From the IMG/VR virus record IMGVR_UViG_3300018080_000111: a stretch of DNA of 64,000 bases. The stretch is one strand, 5' to 3'. Both the position numbers and the translations under genes were made by a program. The stretch comes from a virus (lineage: Duplodnaviria; Heunggongvirae; Uroviricota; Caudoviricetes). This document shows, in pieces, positions 4,492-29,913 of the stretch. Below the pieces are notes generated by a model. It did not search any database. It saw nothing but the letters and a program-made list of their open reading frames with translations, and had not been told where the DNA came from. Position 1 is the first letter of the stretch. Every line of letters begins with the position of its first letter.

Positions 4492-4817
4492 TTACGTTTC
4501 CTCTAAAACAGGTGAAGCAAAGGGGTTCGTCCTCATACCAGACAGTTTTTCCTGGCTCTAATTCCGTTTGACAGTTGGAACAATTCTCTCCCATAGAATG
4601 TAGTTTCTTTTCAACTTCTTCCAAGGTGGAGCACTTAAACCCCACTAAATTTTTGGAAGATAGATTGGAAAGTAAGAATCCCTCTTCTTGGATTTCAAGA
4701 ACTACAAGTCCTTTTTCACTTGCTCTTTTTCTCAGATTGAATAGTTTCGTAATCTCCCTTTCGCATTAAACCCTATATTTAAAATATAGCCCACTTTTCC
4801 GGGAAGGCCAAATAAAA

Positions 4818-4891
4818 TCTCCCAGGTCAGATTTGAATTGACAACTTCTCGGCCCCAAACCGAGCACTCTGCCAAGTTAAGCTACTGGGAG
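4818..4891 (-). tRNA. tRNA-Pro(UGG)-like
   Basis: Reverse strand reads CTCCCAG-TA-GCTT-AACTTGGCA-GAGT-G-CTCGG-TTTGGGG-CCGAG-AAGTT-GTCAA-TTCAAAT-CTGAC-CTGGGAG-A. The 7-bp acceptor and 5-bp anticodon stems are perfect, the loop is UU-UGG-GG, and the D-loop has A14/G18G19/A21. The T-stem has one A53/C61 mismatch. No encoded CCA. Confidence 0.6.
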
Positions 4892-5118
4892 AAAGAAGAG
4901 AAAAGCATTGAACTCCTAAAATCCAATAGGATCAAATCTCCTTCAGCATTTTCTCTTTTGCTCATATTTCCAATATTTCCCTAATTTTCTTCCATTTCTC
5001 TCCCATTTGTGATATCCGAAGACAGCCTATTAAATCTGTTATCTGGTTTTGTCCTAACATTCCAGGGTCCGACCCATGATACACTTGGCGATGGATAAAT
5101 TGACCATTTTTTCATCTC

Positions 5119-22770: not shown

Positions 22771-25700
22771 ATGAATATTATTGAAAATCTGAAGAATAAA
22801 CCAATAATTGAAGAGAAGGATCAGGGAAACCTTCCGGATGCTGTCCTTTGCCGGGTTACTTACAATATATGTAATCTGGGAGAAAGGAATGCAAACAATC
22901 GCATCTATGAGAGAGGGGTCTTTGATAAAGTCCTTGCCGATGAAACTCTTCAGGAAATGATTCAGAATCGAAGACTATTTGGTCAGGCGGAACATCCTAC
23001 GGAGACTCAATCTGATCTTCAACTTACTTCTCATGTTATCCATAAGATGTGGATGGATGAGAATAATGTTTGGCAGACCATGGACGTTCTGGATACTCCT
23101 ATGGGTAGAATTGTGGATAGTTTAATCCGGGCTGAGTGTGGTGTTGGTGTTAGCACTCGGGCAGAGGGAGACCTGGAAGAGTCTGAGGATGACACCGGAA
23201 AGTTCAGTAGGGTGATTCCGGAATCATATGTTTACCGCACGACTGATTTTACTGCGGACCCGAGCACGTTCGGAGTTTTACCTGCCTCTATTAAAAGGAA
23301 TGTACTACCTACGGTTCAGGCCGAGATGGAGAACAAGAGTGCTACATCGGCAGAGAGGGACTTTGCTAAGCAGTTGTTTGAGTCTATTTCTAAGACAGAG
23401 GAATCCAAGGAATCTAAAACCACCGTCGAATCCCTTCTTAAAGAAGATAAGATCAAAGAAGGAACAGAACTCCTTTATGGTGATCAGGAGGTCAAGATAA
23501 TTAAGATTGATGAAGGAAGAGTTCTGGTTGGACTCCCAGGAAAAGAAGGAGACATTGCTATCGAAGGTGCAGAGGTTGCTACTATAGAAGTAGACTCTGG
23601 AAAAGTTCATGTCTGGCCGAAGGAGGAGATGGATATAGATGTTCCTGAGGCAGAACCGGTTGGAGATTTTGAGCCTGAGATGGAGGAGAAAAAGGAGACT
23701 AAGGAGACGGTCAGCCATAAAGGAAGAATTGTCATAACTAAGGATGATTTGAAGTTTGCTGATTCTGAAGATCTTCAAAGATTCCGTAAGATGATGGAAT
23801 TGGATAGAGCGGATCTTGAGGATGGTTTAACTTTAGAGGATCTGGAAGAGAAATGTAGTAAGTCCCACCCCAAGAAGAAAAAGATGAAGGAAGGAATGGA
23901 TCAACTCGTGGCTCGTAAGGAAGAACTCCTGGCCAAAAAAGAAGCTGGAAAATGTACTGAGGATGAGCGAAAGGAGTTGGTAGATATTGAGTCCAAGTTG
24001 AAAGATATGGATGTTGATATTGAGGAAAAATCTCTTCCTACTGAAGGAGGAGTCAGCTCTAAGGTTGCACAAGGAAACGTTCTGAAGAAAGGTGAGGAAA
24101 CTTGGATTGTGAAAAATTCAGACGCTTCTGGAGTTACTGTAACACAACCAGGTGAACCCGCTTCTGAGAAACATATTTCATGGGAATCCTTAGATGATGA
24201 GGACTTCGTAAAGATTGGTGAGAAGGTTGAAATTACAGAAGGATTTGATGTAGGAGACATCGTTCAGATAAAGGATAAAGAAGGAAATACTACAGTTGTT
24301 CCTGAGGCTACCGTTGCTAAAAAAGAGGAACAACAGGAAGGAGTAATGGCGGTAGAAGTTACTGGATCGGATAATGAGGATGAAATGCAATGGTACTCTG
24401 AAGATGAATATCAGATTATTCCTTTGAATAGGAAGAAATGGGAATCTAAGGTAGATGAATCTATTGATGAGGGATTCAAAACTGATCTGAGGAATAAGGA
24501 CAAGGCGGCCATCAAGAAAAGAATTTCAAATATTACTGACAAGATTCTTGCTGGTGAAAAAGTATCTTCTTCTGATAAGAGGTATTGGGAGGACTTCCAC
24601 ACGGCTGTGGAGAAGGTGAAAGGGGATGAGCCTAAAAATGAATCTGTTAATGAAGCAAAGGATGGATTCCTTTGGAGTGACCCAATTTCTGGTGCAAAAT
24701 ATGAGTTGACCAAAGATGACGACGGTTATATCATTTATGCTGATGAACAAGAAATTCTTACAACTAAAGGTGGGGGAGTTAAAATTATTGATGAATTCCA
24801 GGTTGGGGATGGGTTTATTAATATTCTATCAGAAACTGGATCTCACCAATATAGTGAATCTAAAGAAAGTAAATTAATTAAAGAACAATCGGATGAGGGC
24901 ACTGTTTATAGATTTAGTTCTTCTTCCGGATATGATTACGTGGCCAGCTTTAAGGAAGATGGGAGTTTTACTATTGAGGATGAGGAAAATGTATTAGCTC
25001 AAGGAACTTGGTCTGGCGCTGGGGTTACCAAAGTTGGCATAAATGATCCAATAAAGATTATTAATTTCCTACAAGAGCTCCTGTTCGATGGGGGTTATGA
25101 GGAAAGACCGATAGAATCCAAAGACATTAAAATCCAAGAGGCCATCTCCAGAGCAGAAAAGGAAAAGGCCTTAGAAACCATTGAGGAACTTTCCAATGAG
25201 TTGGATTCACAAAAGAACGAAAGTTCGGATTCTAAATTGAGGCTCAAGATGCTTATGAAGAAGATGAAGGAATCCCTCCAGGTTTATGATGAGGTATCCG
25301 CTCTTCGGACTAAGTTGGAGGAAAAGGCCAAAGAGGCCCACAGTCTGAGAGAATCCTTGGAGGAATCTAAATCTAAGTTAGATGAGGAGAAAAAGAAAGG
25401 GAAAGAGCAAATCTTAACCATTTCAGAAACACATAAGAATAAAGTAAATGCTATTGTTGAAAGTAACCAAAATCGTATTAAGATAGTAAAGGAGGAATAT
25501 GAGGAAATAGTTGAAGAGTCTAAAGCGCTAGGTATCACTGAAGGAAAATCAAAGGTCCTCAGTGAATACATAGATCGTAGACTTGCTGAGATTGGTCTGA
25601 GTATTGGGGAAAATACTCGAGCACTTCTCGATGGATGCGAATCCATTGGTGACGTGGAGGATATCCTGGAAAAAACTAAGGATATCCAACGCCGGAATGC

Positions 25701-25812
25701 ACTTCATTCTGAAGGAATCAAGGAAGTTCGCATAAGGAACCATCGTCAGATTGATCCTGAACAGGCAAGGGTGAAAGATGATGTGGATAATGCACTCGAC
25801 GGTATGATGTAA
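22771..25812 (+). CDS. prohead protease (T4 gp21-like N-terminal domain) fused to a long acidic coiled-coil scaffold-like region
   Basis: N-terminal NANNRIYERGVFD...LFGQAEHPTE resembles the gp21-family N..R.Y and G..E.DHP motifs. The remaining 800 aa or so are E/K/D-rich. It lies between the portal and the capsid gene, as in T4. Confidence 0.6.
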   Translation: MNIIENLKNKPIIEEKDQGNLPDAVLCRVTYNICNLGERNANNRIYERGVFDKVLADETLQEMIQNRRLFGQAEHPTETQSDLQLTSHVIHKMWMDENNVWQTMDVLDTPMGRIVDSLIRAECGVGVSTRAEGDLEESEDDTGKFSRVIPESYVYRTTDFTADPSTFGVLPASIKRNVLPTVQAEMENKSATSAERDFAKQLFESISKTEESKESKTTVESLLKEDKIKEGTELLYGDQEVKIIKIDEGRVLVGLPGKEGDIAIEGAEVATIEVDSGKVHVWPKEEMDIDVPEAEPVGDFEPEMEEKKETKETVSHKGRIVITKDDLKFADSEDLQRFRKMMELDRADLEDGLTLEDLEEKCSKSHPKKKKMKEGMDQLVARKEELLAKKEAGKCTEDERKELVDIESKLKDMDVDIEEKSLPTEGGVSSKVAQGNVLKKGEETWIVKNSDASGVTVTQPGEPASEKHISWESLDDEDFVKIGEKVEITEGFDVGDIVQIKDKEGNTTVVPEATVAKKEEQQEGVMAVEVTGSDNEDEMQWYSEDEYQIIPLNRKKWESKVDESIDEGFKTDLRNKDKAAIKKRISNITDKILAGEKVSSSDKRYWEDFHTAVEKVKGDEPKNESVNEAKDGFLWSDPISGAKYELTKDDDGYIIYADEQEILTTKGGGVKIIDEFQVGDGFINILSETGSHQYSESKESKLIKEQSDEGTVYRFSSSSGYDYVASFKEDGSFTIEDEENVLAQGTWSGAGVTKVGINDPIKIINFLQELLFDGGYEERPIESKDIKIQEAISRAEKEKALETIEELSNELDSQKNESSDSKLRLKMLMKKMKESLQVYDEVSALRTKLEEKAKEAHSLRESLEESKSKLDEEKKKGKEQILTISETHKNKVNAIVESNQNRIKIVKEEYEEIVEESKALGITEGKSKVLSEYIDRRLAEIGLSIGENTRALLDGCESIGDVEDILEKTKDIQRRNALHSEGIKEVRIRNHRQIDPEQARVKDDVDNALDGMM

Positions 25813-25849: not shown

Positions 25850-26781
25850 ATGTTAGCTGGTAAGCAAATTGTTGAGTCTCGGATGAAACAAATCGAGACG
25901 GAACGGGACGCCCTTCTGAGTGATCCGACTATTAAGCGGTATCTTTCGGCAGTGAGCGAATCCGTTCAGGATAAGAAAGGCAGAGAGATGACTCTGCATG
26001 AGCAGCGTGTGGTTGCTCAGTGTCTCCGGAACGCTATTGATGATGCAGCCATGCGTTCCAGTAAACCGACCTTGTCAGAGACCACGACTGAGGATGCTGT
26101 AAGTTTCCTCGGGGTCCAATTGCCTGTGATAGCGGCACTACTTCCTTCCTTAGTGCTACCCGAGGTTGGAATTGTGCAGGCGATGGACCGGAGAACGGCC
26201 GCGGTCTTCTACTTCGACGTGAAGTATGGAAGCACCAAGGGTGCGGTTACTGCGGGTGACACGATGTTGTCGGCTACGACTGGCCATGCGACTTCAAAGT
26301 CCGGCCGGATGTATGCGATCGCTCGAGTGGTTGATGAGACTATTGGTACTAGTGACGGAACTAAGTCCGGTACCTTGGAGTACGCTCCTGGTCTGATTAA
26401 TCTTGAGAACATTAAGTTCGAGTCCGTTAGTGGATCGACGCGGACTACCCTGGGTACTTCTAATGCCAGCGGTACTGTTACTGGAGACTATGTCACTTCT
26501 GGTACGGTCACTGCGGCTGGAGTTTATAATGTGACGTTTTCAGGGTTGACGAGTGGAACGACCATTTATATTACGTACGACTATCAGTACGATAAACCGG
26601 TTGATTCGTATAACAATCGGGATGGTGTTCCTGAGGTCGATTTCTCGATTACCCAGAGCTCACTTGAAGCTATTGACTTCCCAGTGAGATCGCGGTATTC
26701 GGTTGGGGCGGCTTTGGATATGATGAAAGCTCACGGTGTAGATCTCGAAAAAGAGGTCGTAAAGTATCTTGGTCACGAGAT
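25850..26781 (+). CDS. major capsid protein (T4 gp23-like), exon 1
   Basis: AALDMMKAHGVDLEKEVVKYLGHEI aligns with T4 gp23 AQDLRAVHGMDADAELSGILATEI. GC is elevated, about 50%. The frame terminates at TAG 26792 just inside the intron. Confidence 0.7.
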
Positions 26782-27087
26782 TAGCTTAAATTAGTCTCGT
26801 AAGCAGCTCAATTCGGTGAAAACCTGATCAGAGAAATCTGAAGGCAATACCGAGCCAGATTATTAAAAAGAAGTATAATATGACTTTCCTAATTTGGACA
26901 GAGGATTTTCTTTTTAATAAAAATGGTGTAACGACTACTTTTCCTCAGGTGACTGGGGAAGATACGGCTGCCAACTCAATAGAGTTGAAGGGATAGTCTG
27001 AGCTGCATGGAAACATGCAGAGATGAGCAGAAATGACTCATCCGCCTATTAAATGATTTGGATAATAGGTTAACAAGCAACAGAATG
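26782..27087 (+). mobile_element. group I intron 1 (306 nt, ORF-less)
   Basis: P1: exon CGAGAU (26776-81) pairs with intron GUCUCG (26794-99) with a terminal U.G at the splice site. R-like aacgactac at about 26925. S-like gatagtctg at about 26993. P9 hairpin CTGCATG-GAAA-CATGCAG. P9.1 GATGAG...CTCATC. Candidate omega-G at 27087 in context aacagaatG. Length is a multiple of 3. Confidence 0.6.
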
Positions 27088-27271
27088 TAAATTCACAGTC
27101 GACCAAGTCGGGCTGGATTTAATCGACGAAGCTGCAAGTGGCAGCGGAGCTGCTACGGGAACCACAGTGTTCGATACTACTCTTTCAAATGGCGAGGCAT
27201 GGATTTGGCGTAAGCATATGTTGAAAGATAGGTTCGAAGAAGGTAAATATATTGCCTCTTTATTCAGCAAT
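27088..27271 (+). CDS. major capsid protein, middle exon (3' boundary uncertain, somewhere 27250-27289)
   Basis: Open frame 27074-27289 encodes ...KFTVDQVGLDLIDEAASGSGAATGTTVFDTTLSNGEAWIW..., matching the T4 gp23 segment VVDWINYSAQVGKSG..GSKAGVFDF..GARWAG that is absent from exons 1 and 3. Confidence 0.5.
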
Positions 27272-27529
27272 GAATATCGAAAATCTGCTTAAACGGAGAA
27301 ACTCCTAACAGATGATGCTGAGGACAATTCCGTACTAGAATATCGAAAATCCATTATGGATAGAACAGATATAAATAGTGTAGAGACTAAGTTGATGGAA
27401 GCGATTCCATTGGCCATGGCAGACATCCCAAGTGGATGAAGAAATAGTCCGAGCTGTATGGAAACATGCAGAGATGAGCAGAAATGACTCATCCGCCTAC
27501 TTAGGTAGGTCACAAAAAGTAACAGATTG
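27272..27529 (+). mobile_element. group I intron 2 (about 258 nt, ORF-less; 5' boundary uncertain)
   Basis: R-like tagagactaag at 27379-27389. S aagaaatagtccg at 27438-27450, a 12/13 match to AAGATATAGTCCG. P9 CTGTATG-GAAA-CATGCAG. P9.1. Candidate omega-G at 27529 in context aacagattG, paralleling intron 1. Confidence 0.55.
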
Positions 27530-27847
27530 AGTAACAACATCTTCGCAAAGACCAAGAGGGCAATCGCGAACTTTATCATTTGTGGCAACAATGTTGCTCG
27601 TGTCATTAAGCAACTTCAGCCTGATTTTGTTCCGGCACCGGGTCTGAATAAGACTCCGCCTACTGGTCCGATTAAGATTGGTGAGTTGAATGGACGTACG
27701 GTTATCCAGAATCCTTTCAAGTCAAGCAACTACTACACGATGGGTTATAAGGGTGATAATTACCTGATGGCTGGGTCAACACACATCAGGGAAATGGTAA
27801 AAGAACTTTGTTCAGATCAGTATAATAGTATGAACAAAGCTGCATAA
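27530..27847 (+). CDS. major capsid protein, exon 3
   Basis: NFIICGNNVARVI aligns with T4 NFIIASRNVVNVL, and YYTMGYKGDNYLMAG with YFTVGYKGPNEMDAG. The frame is open from 27509 and shared with exons 1 and 2. Confidence 0.7.
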   Translation, partial: SNNIFAKTKRAIANFIICGNNVARVIKQLQPDFVPAPGLNKTPPTGPIKIGELNGRTVIQNPFKSSNYYTMGYKGDNYLMAGSTHIREMVKELCSDQYNSMNKAA

Positions 27848-27878
27848 ACATGGGCCCAGTATAAAGGAATTAAATTCG

Positions 27879-28982
27879 GTGAAGGCTAAGGAAGAACGTA
27901 ATTTTGTGGAAAAGGATGGCAAGTGGATCTGCCTTCTTTGTGATCGGGAATTTAAAAGCAAGGCCAGTGTAGGAAGCCATTTGAGTTGGCATTCCAGCGG
28001 TCCCCGTTCCACGGATCATCTTGAGTATGCCAGATCTTGTGTTAATAAGGAAGAACAGATCAAGTCTATGCATAAGGCCTTACGAAAGAAGTTTGAGGAT
28101 AAGGAATGGGTTGAAGATAAGTATAAAAGGACTTCTGAAAGTATAAAGAGTTCTTTTTACTTTAGCGAAGAGAATAAGGAAGTAAGAATAGTTAATGCCA
28201 GGAAAGGCTCAGATTCCTTGTGGAGTAATCCAGAATCCAAGGATAAATGGATGGAAAGTCGGTTTGATAACCAATTTAAGCAGAACCATTACATCTATAA
28301 TGGAACTCATTTTAGAAGCACCTATGAAGTGAAGTTCGCTTATATTTTGGATGTTCTAGGTTTCAATTGGGAATATGAGACGGGATATTTTAATTATCAT
28401 CTGTATGGAAAAGAGAGAAAATACCTTCCAGATTTTTACCTTCCTGAGTTAGATATTTGGGTTGAGGTTTTTGGAAGATATACAGATGAGAAGGGATTAA
28501 AGATTTATCTTACTTCTAAGGAAAACAATATTACTATCTTCGCTACCACATTAGATGACTTTCACTCATTTGAGTTAAATGATCAAGATATCATTTTTTC
28601 TCAGGATGGGGAGAAGGAAAACTTCTTCTATGCTAATACCGAGCCAAGCCAAATAAGAAATTATTTGGAAGGTGTAGAGACTAGAATCGAAAGTCTAAGG
28701 AAATATATTATTTCTAGGGCAAGTAGATTCCACGAACAGTTCCTCGTAGATGAAAACTACGAAAGATATAGTCCGACCTTACAAGAAATTGTAAGAAATG
28801 AGGATAAAGAGCCTCATGATAACATAAATGTCATGTACTGTCCGTACATCCCCTTATTCGCTACTCCAACCTTAATTACCAGTGATCTTATCTCTCAGAA
28901 GGGCTTCTTAAGCTCGGCTGGATTTAAGGTGATCAACGCTGGTATGTTCTGTGAGGGGTACATCAGTGGTACGATTTCTTAA
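27879..28982 (+). CDS. C2H2 zinc-finger plus PD-(D/E)xK-like nuclease (candidate free-standing homing endonuclease)
   Basis: N-terminal CLLCDREFKSKASVGSHLSWH (C2H2). Core PDFYLPELDIWVEV resembles a PD...E.D restriction-like motif. Sits directly 3' of the intron-bearing capsid gene. Confidence 0.5.
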   Translation: MKAKEERNFVEKDGKWICLLCDREFKSKASVGSHLSWHSSGPRSTDHLEYARSCVNKEEQIKSMHKALRKKFEDKEWVEDKYKRTSESIKSSFYFSEENKEVRIVNARKGSDSLWSNPESKDKWMESRFDNQFKQNHYIYNGTHFRSTYEVKFAYILDVLGFNWEYETGYFNYHLYGKERKYLPDFYLPELDIWVEVFGRYTDEKGLKIYLTSKENNITIFATTLDDFHSFELNDQDIIFSQDGEKENFFYANTEPSQIRNYLEGVETRIESLRKYIISRASRFHEQFLVDENYERYSPTLQEIVRNEDKEPHDNINVMYCPYIPLFATPTLITSDLISQKGFLSSAGFKVINAGMFCEGYISGTIS

Positions 28983-29100
28983 TCGTATGTTTAGTTAACT
29001 AGGTTAAATTTTCAGGTATTTTCGAATAGTTGGAAACTCAGGGTAGGACTTCTAAGGAAAGGGGTTCTGCCCTGGGCCTTTAGTATTTTAGGAATGAATA

Positions 29101-29913
29101 ATGTTCAACGAACTATACGAAAACATTCCTACTGAAATCAGTAAATCTGAATTCGAAGAACTTTTTCAGCCCATTTCTCAAGAAGAAGTAGAATCCAGAT
29201 TAATGGACTACATCAAGTCCGTCTGTACTGAAAATCCAGATGGCACTTGGAGTGCCAGTGGAGATGTGGATTTATCCAAAAGGGGTCTAACTAAGTTACC
29301 CATCAAATTCAAGGAAGTAGGTGGAGGCTTTTATTGTTCTCATAATAATCTAACTTCTCTAGAAGGAGCACCTCAGACAGTAGGTGGAGGCTTTTATTGT
29401 TACAACAACTCTCTAACTTCTCTAGAAGGAGCACCTCAGGAAGTAGGTGGAAACTTTGATTGCTCCTTCAACTCTCTAACCTCTCTAGAAGGAGCCCCTC
29501 AGACAGTAGGTAGTTTCTTTGATTGTTATAACAACTCTCTAACTTCTCTAGAAGGAGCCCCTCAGACAGTAGGCGGAGGCTTTTTGTGTTCTGACAACAA
29601 ATTAACTTCTCTAGAAGGAGCACCTCAGACAGTAGGTGGAAACTTTTTGTGTTCTGACAACAAATTAACTTCTCTAGAAGGAGCACCTCAGACAGTAGGT
29701 GGTTTCTTTGATTGCTCCTACAACTTACTAACTTCTCTAGAAGGAGCACCTCAGACAGTAGGTGGTTTCTTTGAGTGTTCCTTCAACTCTCTAACTTCTC
29801 TAGAAGGAGCGCCCCAGGAAGTAGGTGGATCCTTTCATTGTTCCAACAACAAACTTTCAGTTGAAGAATTAAAGAAAACAATAGATAGACCTTATTTGGA
29901 TAGAATAGGATAA
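29101..29913 (+). CDS. leucine-rich-repeat (20-aa LTSLEGAPQxVGGxFxCSxN units) protein, paralog 1
   Basis: About 9 tandem 60-bp repeats. The N-terminal 60 aa are near-identical to ORFs 43661 and 45334. Confidence 0.6.
   Translation: MFNELYENIPTEISKSEFEELFQPISQEEVESRLMDYIKSVCTENPDGTWSASGDVDLSKRGLTKLPIKFKEVGGGFYCSHNNLTSLEGAPQTVGGGFYCYNNSLTSLEGAPQEVGGNFDCSFNSLTSLEGAPQTVGSFFDCYNNSLTSLEGAPQTVGGGFLCSDNKLTSLEGAPQTVGGNFLCSDNKLTSLEGAPQTVGGFFDCSYNLLTSLEGAPQTVGGFFECSFNSLTSLEGAPQEVGGSFHCSNNKLSVEELKKTIDRPYLDRIG

Follow-up and report, generated by a model that had tools for sequence, protein, structure and literature searches.

The 64,000-nt stretch of viral DNA analysed here (IMG/VR record IMGVR_UViG_3300018080_000111; hereafter the window) comes from an uncultured myovirus of the T4 type and includes the structural module. 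The major capsid protein gene, of the gp23 family, is interrupted three times, and we are highly confident that the three interrupting elements are group I introns and that splicing is required to make the capsid protein. A preliminary description, made from the letters alone, had already proposed a gp23-like capsid gene broken by compact group I introns lacking open reading frames (ORFs), a proposal upheld by covariance-model matches, exact boundaries at the P1 helix and the terminal G, gap-free colinearity with intact homologues, and covariation. Its layout of three same-frame exons and two introns is incorrect: the gene has four exons and three introns, the third of which is 1054 nt long and shifts the genomic frame (Table 1). 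We demonstrate below the sequence and structure of the ribozymes, their exact boundaries, the restored reading frame and the presence of homologous introns at the same sites of related genes.

Under the mechanism that we propose, the late pre-mRNA would be spliced three times, each time by guanosine attack after the U of the P1 U.G pair followed by exon ligation after the terminal G, and the product would be an mRNA for a 495-amino acid (aa) gp23-family capsid protein. The introns would be mobile elements from two related lineages, established at conserved positions in the capsid gene throughout the virus clade. Introns 1 and 2 would be endonuclease-less derivatives, intron 1 with a 38-codon TnsA-like stump, and intron 3 would still carry, in its P5 loop, a zinc-finger plus PD-(D/E)XK ORF of the homing-endonuclease type.

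Spliced capsid protein and exon boundaries

Joining the four exons gives 1488 nt that encode 495 aa with zero internal stops, beginning at ATG 25850, which follows a Shine-Dalgarno sequence (AGGAG), and ending with TAA at 28980-82. The spliced protein gave one unbroken match to Pfam Gp23 (PF07068), over residues 90-473 (E 3.4e-38; 132.5 bits, cut-off 24.4), and also matched PHROG 138, major head protein. A collection of 5.8 billion proteins held dozens of uninterrupted homologues of about 498 aa, many of them 74-87% identical and with no indel at any junction; the best intact one (P0001, 498 aa) showed 87% identity at 99% coverage. The three junctions (marked by a slash), HEI/KF, EEG/SN and MAG/FM, are gap-free against these intact homologues. 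That between exons 2 and 3, EEG/SNNIF, is colinear with them, and MAG/FMYCPY pairs without gaps with AGFIYAPY of the intact homologues and AGIYYAPY of T4 gp23. Intron-less DNA alleles (in loci L157, L161, L162 and others) are unbroken exactly at the predicted junctions, as in GGTCACGAGAT/TAAATT and ATGGCAGGGT/TTATTT of L157 (allele sequence GATAATTACCTGATGGCAGGGTTTATTTATGCTCCGTAT). Where the preliminary description had aligned separate segments to T4 gp23, the conceptually spliced product aligned with the solved T4 protein (PDB 6uzc, 5vf3) in a single stretch, residues 261-458, that crosses all three junctions (E 1.7e-14). An intact capsid gene elsewhere, which that description had named as a possible refutation, was absent: no second gp23-like gene was found within the 64-kb window.

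Intron boundaries were set by rule, the 5' boundary by the U of the P1 U.G pair and the 3' boundary by the terminal G. All three introns have the U.G pair at the 5' splice site (U26781.G26794, U27244.G27254 and U27776.G27854) and a terminal guanosine (omega-G: G27087, G27529 and G28830). The upstream exon frames meet stops 10-69 nt into each intron, at 26792, 27290 and 27845, the first two being the TAG and TAA that had been reported earlier. The G+C content is 44-50% in exons and 36-39% in introns. Introns 1 and 2 are multiples of three, as had been claimed (306 and 285 nt); intron 3 is not. Two earlier boundaries moved: intron 2 starts not at 27250 but at 27245, directly after GGU 27242-44, and exon 3, drawn through to 27847, ends at U27776 (..YLMAG), with 27777-27847 forming the beginning of the third intron. 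The earlier gene model lacked the last 50 codons (28831-28982), and its interval spans only about 64% of the gene because the gene continues to 28982. No terminator-like hairpin was found 3' of 27847, the gene end presumed in that model; one follows the actual capsid stop (Table 1). The 367-codon frame 27879-28982 of the ORF list ends in ..NVMYCPYIPLFATPTLITSDL.., the conserved C-terminal part of gp23-type proteins.

Table 1. Coordinates of the capsid gene, its exons and introns, and the intron helices and ORFs (window positions unless a locus number is given).
Feature	Coordinates	Strand	Remarks
Interrupted major capsid protein gene (gp23-family), complete	25850..28982	+	4 exons, 3 group I introns
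Exon 1	25850..26781	+	932 nt; ends ..KYLGHE + AU of Ile codon
Intron 1	26782..27087	+	group I, 306 nt, no intact ORF; RF00028 match
Exon 2	27088..27244	+	157 nt; U + KFTVDQVG...KDRFEEG
Intron 2	27245..27529	+	group I, 285 nt, ORF-less; RF00028 match; starts after GGU 27242-44
Exon 3	27530..27776	+	247 nt; SNNIFAKT...GDNYLMAG + U
Intron 3	27777..28830	+	group I, 1054 nt; ORF in P5 loop
Exon 4	28831..28982	+	152 nt; UC + MYCPYIPLFATPTLITSDL...GTIS, then stop
Terminator-like hairpin	29037..29086	+	17 pairs + T-rich tail; 55 nt past capsid stop
Intron 1 P1; P3; P4	26775-81/26794-800; 26803-08/26966-71; 26813-18/26848-53	+	
Intron 1 P7; P7.1; P8	26933-37/26994-98; 26939-48/26953-62; 26973-77/26982-86	+	P7.1 with GUGA loop
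Intron 1 P9; P9.1; P9.2	27003-09/27014-20; 27022-27/27037-42; 27045-51/27063-69	+	P9 with GAAA loop
Intron 1 P10	26788-93 with exon 2 27088-93	+	5/6 pairs
Intron 1, 38-codon remnant ORF	26880..26996	+	MTFLIWTEDFLFNKNGVTT..; compared by eye with L004 ORF
Intron 2 P1; P2	27238-46/27252-60; 27261-66/27271-76	+	P2 with GCAA loop
Intron 2 P3; P4; P7	27284-88/27419-23; 27293-98/27328-33; 27385-89/27445-49	+	
Intron 2 P7.1; P8	27393-400/27405-12; 27424-28/27434-38	+	
Intron 2 P9; P9.1; P9.2	27454-60/27465-71; 27473-78/27488-93; 27496-500/27505-09	+	
Intron 3 P1; P1a	27771-76/27854-59; 27806-14/27831-39	+	P1 CUGGGU/GCCCAG, 6/6 pairs
Intron 3 P3; P4; P5	27866-71/28738-43; 27876-81/28637-42; 27884-86/28632-34	+	
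Intron 3 P6; P6a; P7	28643-45/28671-73; 28649-56/28661-68; 28679-83/28769-73	+	
Intron 3 P7.1; P8	28699-705/28709-15; 28745-49/28757-61	+	
Intron 3 P9; P9.1	28778-84/28789-95; 28798-803/28812-17	+	
Intron 3 P10	ACAUGG 27848-53 with exon 4 28831-36	+	6/6 pairs
Intron-3 ORF	27879..28982	+	367 codons; GUG start, ends at capsid stop
Site-445/446 introns with open frame	window 27864-28982; L014:5265-5493; L212:4760-5015; L035:5436-5727; L219:2184-2344; L225:3501-4625		

Automatic gene callers cut the capsid gene into four unrelated-looking ORFs (314, 38, 106 and 367 aa), an annotation that would suit separate genes lying between capsid-fragment genes. That reading, and with it those of inteins or assembly chimeras, is effectively refuted: the covariance-model matches and covariation reported below denote structured RNA, and three independent assemblies agree on the locus at every base (a pair of ENA contigs, each about 145 kb long, and a 24-kb contig from Logan; source samples ENA ERZ27256796 and ERZ27256773, and SRR6963352). 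Inteins were rejected specifically, since in-frame stops in each intron and the frame change made by intron 3 render protein splicing impossible. The splitting into ORFs obscures the capsid protein and raises the number of 'hypothetical' genes counted, and it affects about one in five related metagenomic capsid loci. One of the identical assemblies (L001) departs from the window from position 29640 onward, 3' of the capsid gene; the divergence amounts to 745 mismatches in an ungapped comparison and is probably an indel, the next gene encoding 249 aa in L001 vs 270 aa in the window.

It could also be argued that the gene is a decaying pseudogene of a defective or dead-end genome, whose introns no longer splice and which yields no full-length capsid protein; neither intron 1 nor intron 2 retains its endonuclease gene, and expression of the capsid gene is only predicted. 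We consider this very improbable, as the exons are perfectly open, without frameshift and at the identity to intact homologues given above, the ribozyme cores, P1 helices and terminal G are intact, the identical sequence came from three samples on contigs of the lengths just cited, and this is the sole capsid gene in an otherwise intact morphogenesis module.

Ribozyme cores, covariation and relatives

In a whole-window scan with Rfam model RF00028 (Intron_gpI; gathering score 50), both introns of the preliminary description scored above gathering and spanned the full model, at 26759-27020 (+ strand, 54.4 bits, E 4.7e-11) and 27235-27471 (+ strand, 64.3 bits, E 5.1e-14); the remaining above-gathering Rfam matches in the window were two tRNA genes only. 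Helix complementarity was checked by script in all three introns. The P1 helix put forward earlier for intron 1 is exact (ACGAGAU with GUCUCGU, 7/7 pairs, including U26781.G26794), and the R and S core elements, the P9 GAAA hairpins, the P9.1 hairpins and the 3' splice-site contexts AACAGA(A/U)UG all lie where they had been placed. P2 is absent from intron 1 and has 6 bp with a GCAA loop in intron 2. All three introns have an extra hairpin, P7.1, between P7 and the P3 3' strand, plus extensions after P9 (P9.1 and P9.2 in introns 1 and 2; only P9.1 was identified in intron 3); this P7.1 and P9-extension layout is that of subgroup IA, which includes the T4 introns.

Related capsid genes were collected by scans with capsid alignments, which gave 27 IMG/VR loci, 67 metagenome loci (the sets partly overlap) and one GTDB genome locus. 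By tblastn mapping, about one in five is interrupted (5/27 and 14/67). In window protein numbering, which is used for all insertion positions, interruptions recur at 89/90, about 297, 310-313, 350/351 and 445/446, and position 363/364 is interrupted in the window only. Site 445/446 is occupied in the divergent relatives L014, L035, L212, L225 and L226, and site 310-313 in L036, L211, L214 and L216, likewise divergent; in L212 and L220 the gene is interrupted at least three times, each time by about 1 kb. When the window intron halves were used as nhmmer queries, 5' halves were found directly after the upstream exon and 3' halves ending at the downstream exon. Insertions of about 1 kb lie in the introns of some relatives, with endonuclease ORFs confirmed where examined (L004, L036, L225 and L226). 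The introns would have spread by homing. Rfam gave three RF00028 matches of 53-67 bits in L035, reported as two above the gathering score, and no match at E <= 1e-3 in L025, L034 or L036; in L034 and L036, nhmmer with the window intron halves detected homologous introns split by ORFs of about 1 kb.

Covariation was assessed in two sets. The first (A3) comprised 20 3' halves of the intron-1/2 type, with helices P7, P7.1, P8, P9, P9.1 and P9.2 derived from intron 1; 97.1% of cells were paired and 33/40 pairs showed double changes, a result reached by 0/500 shuffles, and partners slid out of register paired at 35-45%. The second (A5) comprised six introns of the intron-3 type with the ORF loop removed, for which 95.9% of cells were paired and 24/62 pairs showed double changes, including 5/6 pairs of the long-range P3 helix, which bridges the 737-nt ORF-bearing loop. 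A compensatory change is also seen in P1 of relative L226 (CAGGGU/GCCCUG). These patterns argue that the introns evolve as structured RNAs.

Several points weigh against this account. Intron 3 itself scored under the Rfam gathering threshold because its 737-nt ORF-bearing loop splits the core; a permissive search placed RF00028 at 28586-28795 with 34 bits (E 6.4e-5 over the whole window, 1.4e-6 in the local search), covering the 3' half only, and an ORF-less orthologue of intron 3 at the same site in L014 scored 69.6 bits. The P1 helix of intron 2 is short (6 contiguous pairs, then a mismatch, then 2 pairs), and no P10 was evident among the helices checked in that intron. Our naming of the three introns as subgroup-IA-like, from the P7.1 and P9.1/9.2 layout, was made by eye rather than with subgroup models. 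Finally, that splicing occurs, and that in vivo it is autocatalytic and efficient, we infer from sequence rather than from RNA.

Introns 1 and 2 have no endonuclease ORF, and the former keeps what appears to be the trace of one. Homologues of intron 1 in L004 (at about 297) and L036 (at 310-313) contain an intact ORF of about 310 codons in the P6 region, whose last 40 or so codons double as ribozyme P6-P7-P8. In L004 this ORF has 314 codons and a Pfam TnsA-like match, and it ends ..MVFLVWTENFLFNENSVTTMFSQVT.. over the same P6-P7-P8 nucleotides as 26880-26996 in the window, where the 38-codon ORF reads MTFLIWTEDFLFN.., that is, an AUG fused to the final codons of the endonuclease. The 38-codon ORF is thus the C-terminal leftover of a TnsA-like homing endonuclease whose body was deleted, and intron 1 a deletion derivative, as only the AUG and last codons of the TnsA-like ORF are left. 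A 58-nt 3' module (P7 3' strand, P9 and P9.1) is common to the two ORF-poor introns: 26993-27050 in intron 1 and 27444-27501 in intron 2 are identical at 55/58 positions, and the remainder of these introns is about 65% identical. This suggests either recent exchange, possibly gene conversion, or shared descent of the 3' parts; the shared module might also allow skipping of exon 2, with a frame shift.

Further interruptions were seen in the relatives. A 510-nt insertion at capsid residue ~90 of L025 (L025:4240-4753) contains a small Cys-rich ORF and, by eye, core-like R/S motifs (AGAGACUAAG and GAUAUAGUCCG); it probably represents a further group I intron that has diverged more, and L212 and L220 are interrupted at the same site. 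Two group I introns surround a micro-exon of about 15 nt in L035:5340-6080 and L212:4640-5381 (UCAUUUACGCGCCCU in L035), and the exon frame stays open all the way through the second L035 intron, over some 100 codons. At L212:4683-4689, with the same sequence in L223, the last exon base is A rather than the near-universal U, opposite the guide-sequence G (GCUGGGA/CGG, slash at the splice site). Just 3' of uninterrupted capsid genes, 3' halves of the intron-1 type were found at L016:5651-6090 and L026:5542-5697 (nhmmer E 1e-12 to 1e-17), and because they adjoin uninterrupted capsid genes, the intron-1 lineage would also be present in or near neighbouring gene(s) of some relatives.

The intron-3 ORF and its stop-less frame

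The ORF of intron 3 comprises an N-terminal C2H2 zinc finger followed by a domain resembling the PD-(D/E)XK nuclease T7 endonuclease I. It matched the PHROG endonuclease family phrog_15137 (E 1.2e-13), and a profile of its family matched T7 endonuclease I (PDB 2pfj and 1m0d) at E 5e-6 to 8e-6, with the core FRS..E ... PDF ... VE aligned and the acidic motif residues kept in the window (..FRSTYE.., PDF and VEV). Homologues P0122-P0127 have the same architecture. Unlike T7 endonuclease I, the intron-3 ORF has the added finger, lacks the canonical lysine and lacks a stop, running into the exon. I-Ssp6803I is a PD-(D/E)XK homing endonuclease and a precedent for an intron-encoded one. The product may be an active homing endonuclease. 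The zinc-finger matches are weak, the Pfam Phage_endo_I score (28.3 bits) is just below the 29.1 cut-off, and the catalytic lysine of T7 endonuclease I (VETKG) is unconserved in the family (VEVFG / VEVTG), which makes nuclease activity uncertain.

The GUG start of this ORF, at 27879, lies inside the P4 5' strand, and a Shine-Dalgarno-like AAGGA (27864-68) overlaps the P3 5' strand; with the start site so placed, the folded ribozyme would hide it, and a ribosome that initiated there would open up the core. The ORF lacks a stop codon within the intron and continues through P5'-P9.1, then in frame into exon 4. The same stop-less reading into the exon occurs in 6/7 nuclease-bearing homologues, the remaining one having UAA 11 nt before the splice site. 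In nuclease-less relatives at site 445/446 (L014, L212, L219 and L035) the frame is likewise open from the same GUG to the exon: over 53-97 codons there are 0 stops in the ORF frame vs 4-8 and 9-14 in the other two, and the chance of no stop, calculated from composition, is 0.0004-0.012 per nuclease-less copy. Differences in loop and P8 length among site-445/446 introns are multiples of three. The control was a set of 68 unrelated viral group I introns with a 15-nt core word in common; in these the same frame closes after 13 codons (median). This word, the 15-mer AATACCGAGCCAAGC, had been tried in an IMG/VR scan for site-C (445/446) relatives and rejected as a generic viral group I core element that did not isolate the family; its 68 matches with R/S motifs at the right spacing were kept only as the open-frame control.

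Protein-level selection was not evident in the ribozyme-overlapping part of the ORF, substitutions being even over codon positions (e.g. 14/16/19 and 15/15/15). Thus only the openness of the frame, not the peptide, appears to be kept in the site-445/446 introns. This bears on the idea that the introns are genuine and are removed in vivo, with splicing that is not autonomous and needs a protein cofactor (a maturase-like product or host chaperone) or ribosome passage. The weak P1 and the lack of P10 in intron 2 would fit such a dependence, and the frame that site-C introns keep translatable across the core, nuclease or no nuclease, might point to some function of translation or of a peptide. Against it, all core helices are intact and covarying, self-splicing in vitro is seen for many phage group I introns built like these, and a conserved maturase peptide is unlikely because the core ORF substitutions lack codon-position bias. 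We judge non-autonomous splicing improbable, and retain autonomous group I splicing as the preferred reading.

Two possible explanations of the stop-less ORF may be considered. Translation of the nuclease may be restricted to the precursor before splicing, since the intron, once excised, would lack a stop codon; alternatively, translation may protect the long precursor. A literature search for ORFs fused to the downstream exon found nothing specific. The frame offers a concrete setting in which translation and ribozyme folding either conflict or are coupled. Two further readings, that the site-445/446 intron family has a built-in link of translation to splicing and that the virus clade infects Asgard archaea (see below), are speculative, and we give them a low probability.

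Precedents and virus context

Earlier papers have described group I introns in capsid genes of phages as well as a single gene with three of them; the host gene family, the intron density and the clade-wide colonisation of one gene are new. The preliminary description had called multiple group I introns in a phage structural gene uncommon, which is overstated given the precedents in Twort, Bastillevirinae, Jug phages, LittleE and Tuc2009. In Staphylococcus phage Twort, the gene orf142 is interrupted by three self-splicing group I introns (Landthaler & Shub 1999, cited by PMC6669764 and PMC11878797). It resembles the window in having three group I introns in a single phage gene, with short exons between compact introns; it differs in that the window gene encodes a gp23-family capsid protein in another virus lineage, has one intron with an endonuclease-type ORF, and is known from sequence alone.

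A group I-type intron interrupts a tailed-phage capsid gene, as in the window, in mycobacteriophage LittleE, where it contains a homing-endonuclease gene and where late-infection splicing was seen by reverse-transcription PCR (PMC3706429), and in lactococcal phage Tuc2009, according to its citation in PMC3706429. Those genes have one intron each, whereas the window has three in a gp23-type capsid gene. The LittleE intron ORF is on the opposite strand (it is HNH in the figure legend, and the text reports LAGLIDADG similarity; PMC3706429), unlike the window ORF, which is on the same strand and overlaps the ribozyme. For the T=13 capsid of LittleE 775 capsid protein copies are predicted (PMC3706429); since the protein is needed in hundreds of copies per particle, three introns in series imply very efficient late splicing.

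In T4-related phages, introns are listed for td, nrdB, nrdD and DNA polymerase genes (PMC2993671; see also PMC2988022), and our literature searches found none in g23 of T4-like phages. The T4 td, nrdB and nrdD introns share with those of the window a compact, IA-like form with P7.1 and P9.1/9.2 extensions, and the window has a T4-type head module (PMC2993671, PMC2988022); they also share endonuclease ORFs in peripheral loops and truncated remnants (as in nrdB). They differ in residing in genes of nucleotide metabolism and DNA polymerase and in encoding GIY-YIG or HNH endonucleases, where the window has a capsid gene and PD-(D/E)XK. Multiple group I introns are also reported for the Bastillevirinae, whose DNA polymerase and terL genes contain two or three (PMC11878797), and for the Jug jumbo phages, with about 18.5 introns per genome, terL included, and metatranscriptome support (PMC12880540). 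There, as in the window, genes that are essential (DNA polymerase, terL, nrdD) have two or three such introns, a large share of them small and ORF-less, PDDEXK-type endonucleases are among those found, and detection likewise combined Infernal with restored ORFs. In contrast to the terL, polymerase and nrdD genes split in those phages, the hot spot here is the capsid gene, in an unrelated virus clade; all three introns of the 64-kb window sit in it.

The clade forms a natural series for the homing-intron life cycle: the same site is vacant in some members and in others holds an intron with or without a nuclease, and some micro-exons measure only about 15 nt. The nearest capsid proteins of cultured phages (Listeria phage LIS04 and Bacillus phage HSE3) are <30% identical to that of the window. 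Only three capsid homologues bear organism labels (P0015, P0052 and P0038 / L224; about 60% identical, on separate contigs), and all are in Asgard archaeal metagenome-assembled genomes (MAGs), binned as Thorarchaeota, Hodarchaeota and Candidatus Borrarchaeum (a 179-kb contig). The single locus of the GTDB genome scan, in the Borrarchaeum MAG, is too little to assign a host, and a literature search on large T4-type Asgard viruses found nothing specific. The Asgard bins hint at either an archaeal host for the clade or mis-binning; if the clade does infect Asgard archaea, these would be group I introns in a structural gene of an archaeal virus.

The genes neighbouring the capsid gene form a T4-type morphogenesis module: Gp20-like portal, S77 prohead protease, tail sheath and baseplate J. 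The gene at 22771-25812, which precedes the capsid gene, encodes 1013 aa in which a prohead protease of the T4 gp21 type (Peptidase_S77) is fused to a scaffold-like region, very long and rich in Glu and Lys; the protease-scaffold fusions of relatives have 754-898 aa or more. The two tRNA genes of the window, both on the minus strand, are tRNA-Gln(UUG) at 1565-1636 and tRNA-Pro(UGG) at 4817-4892.

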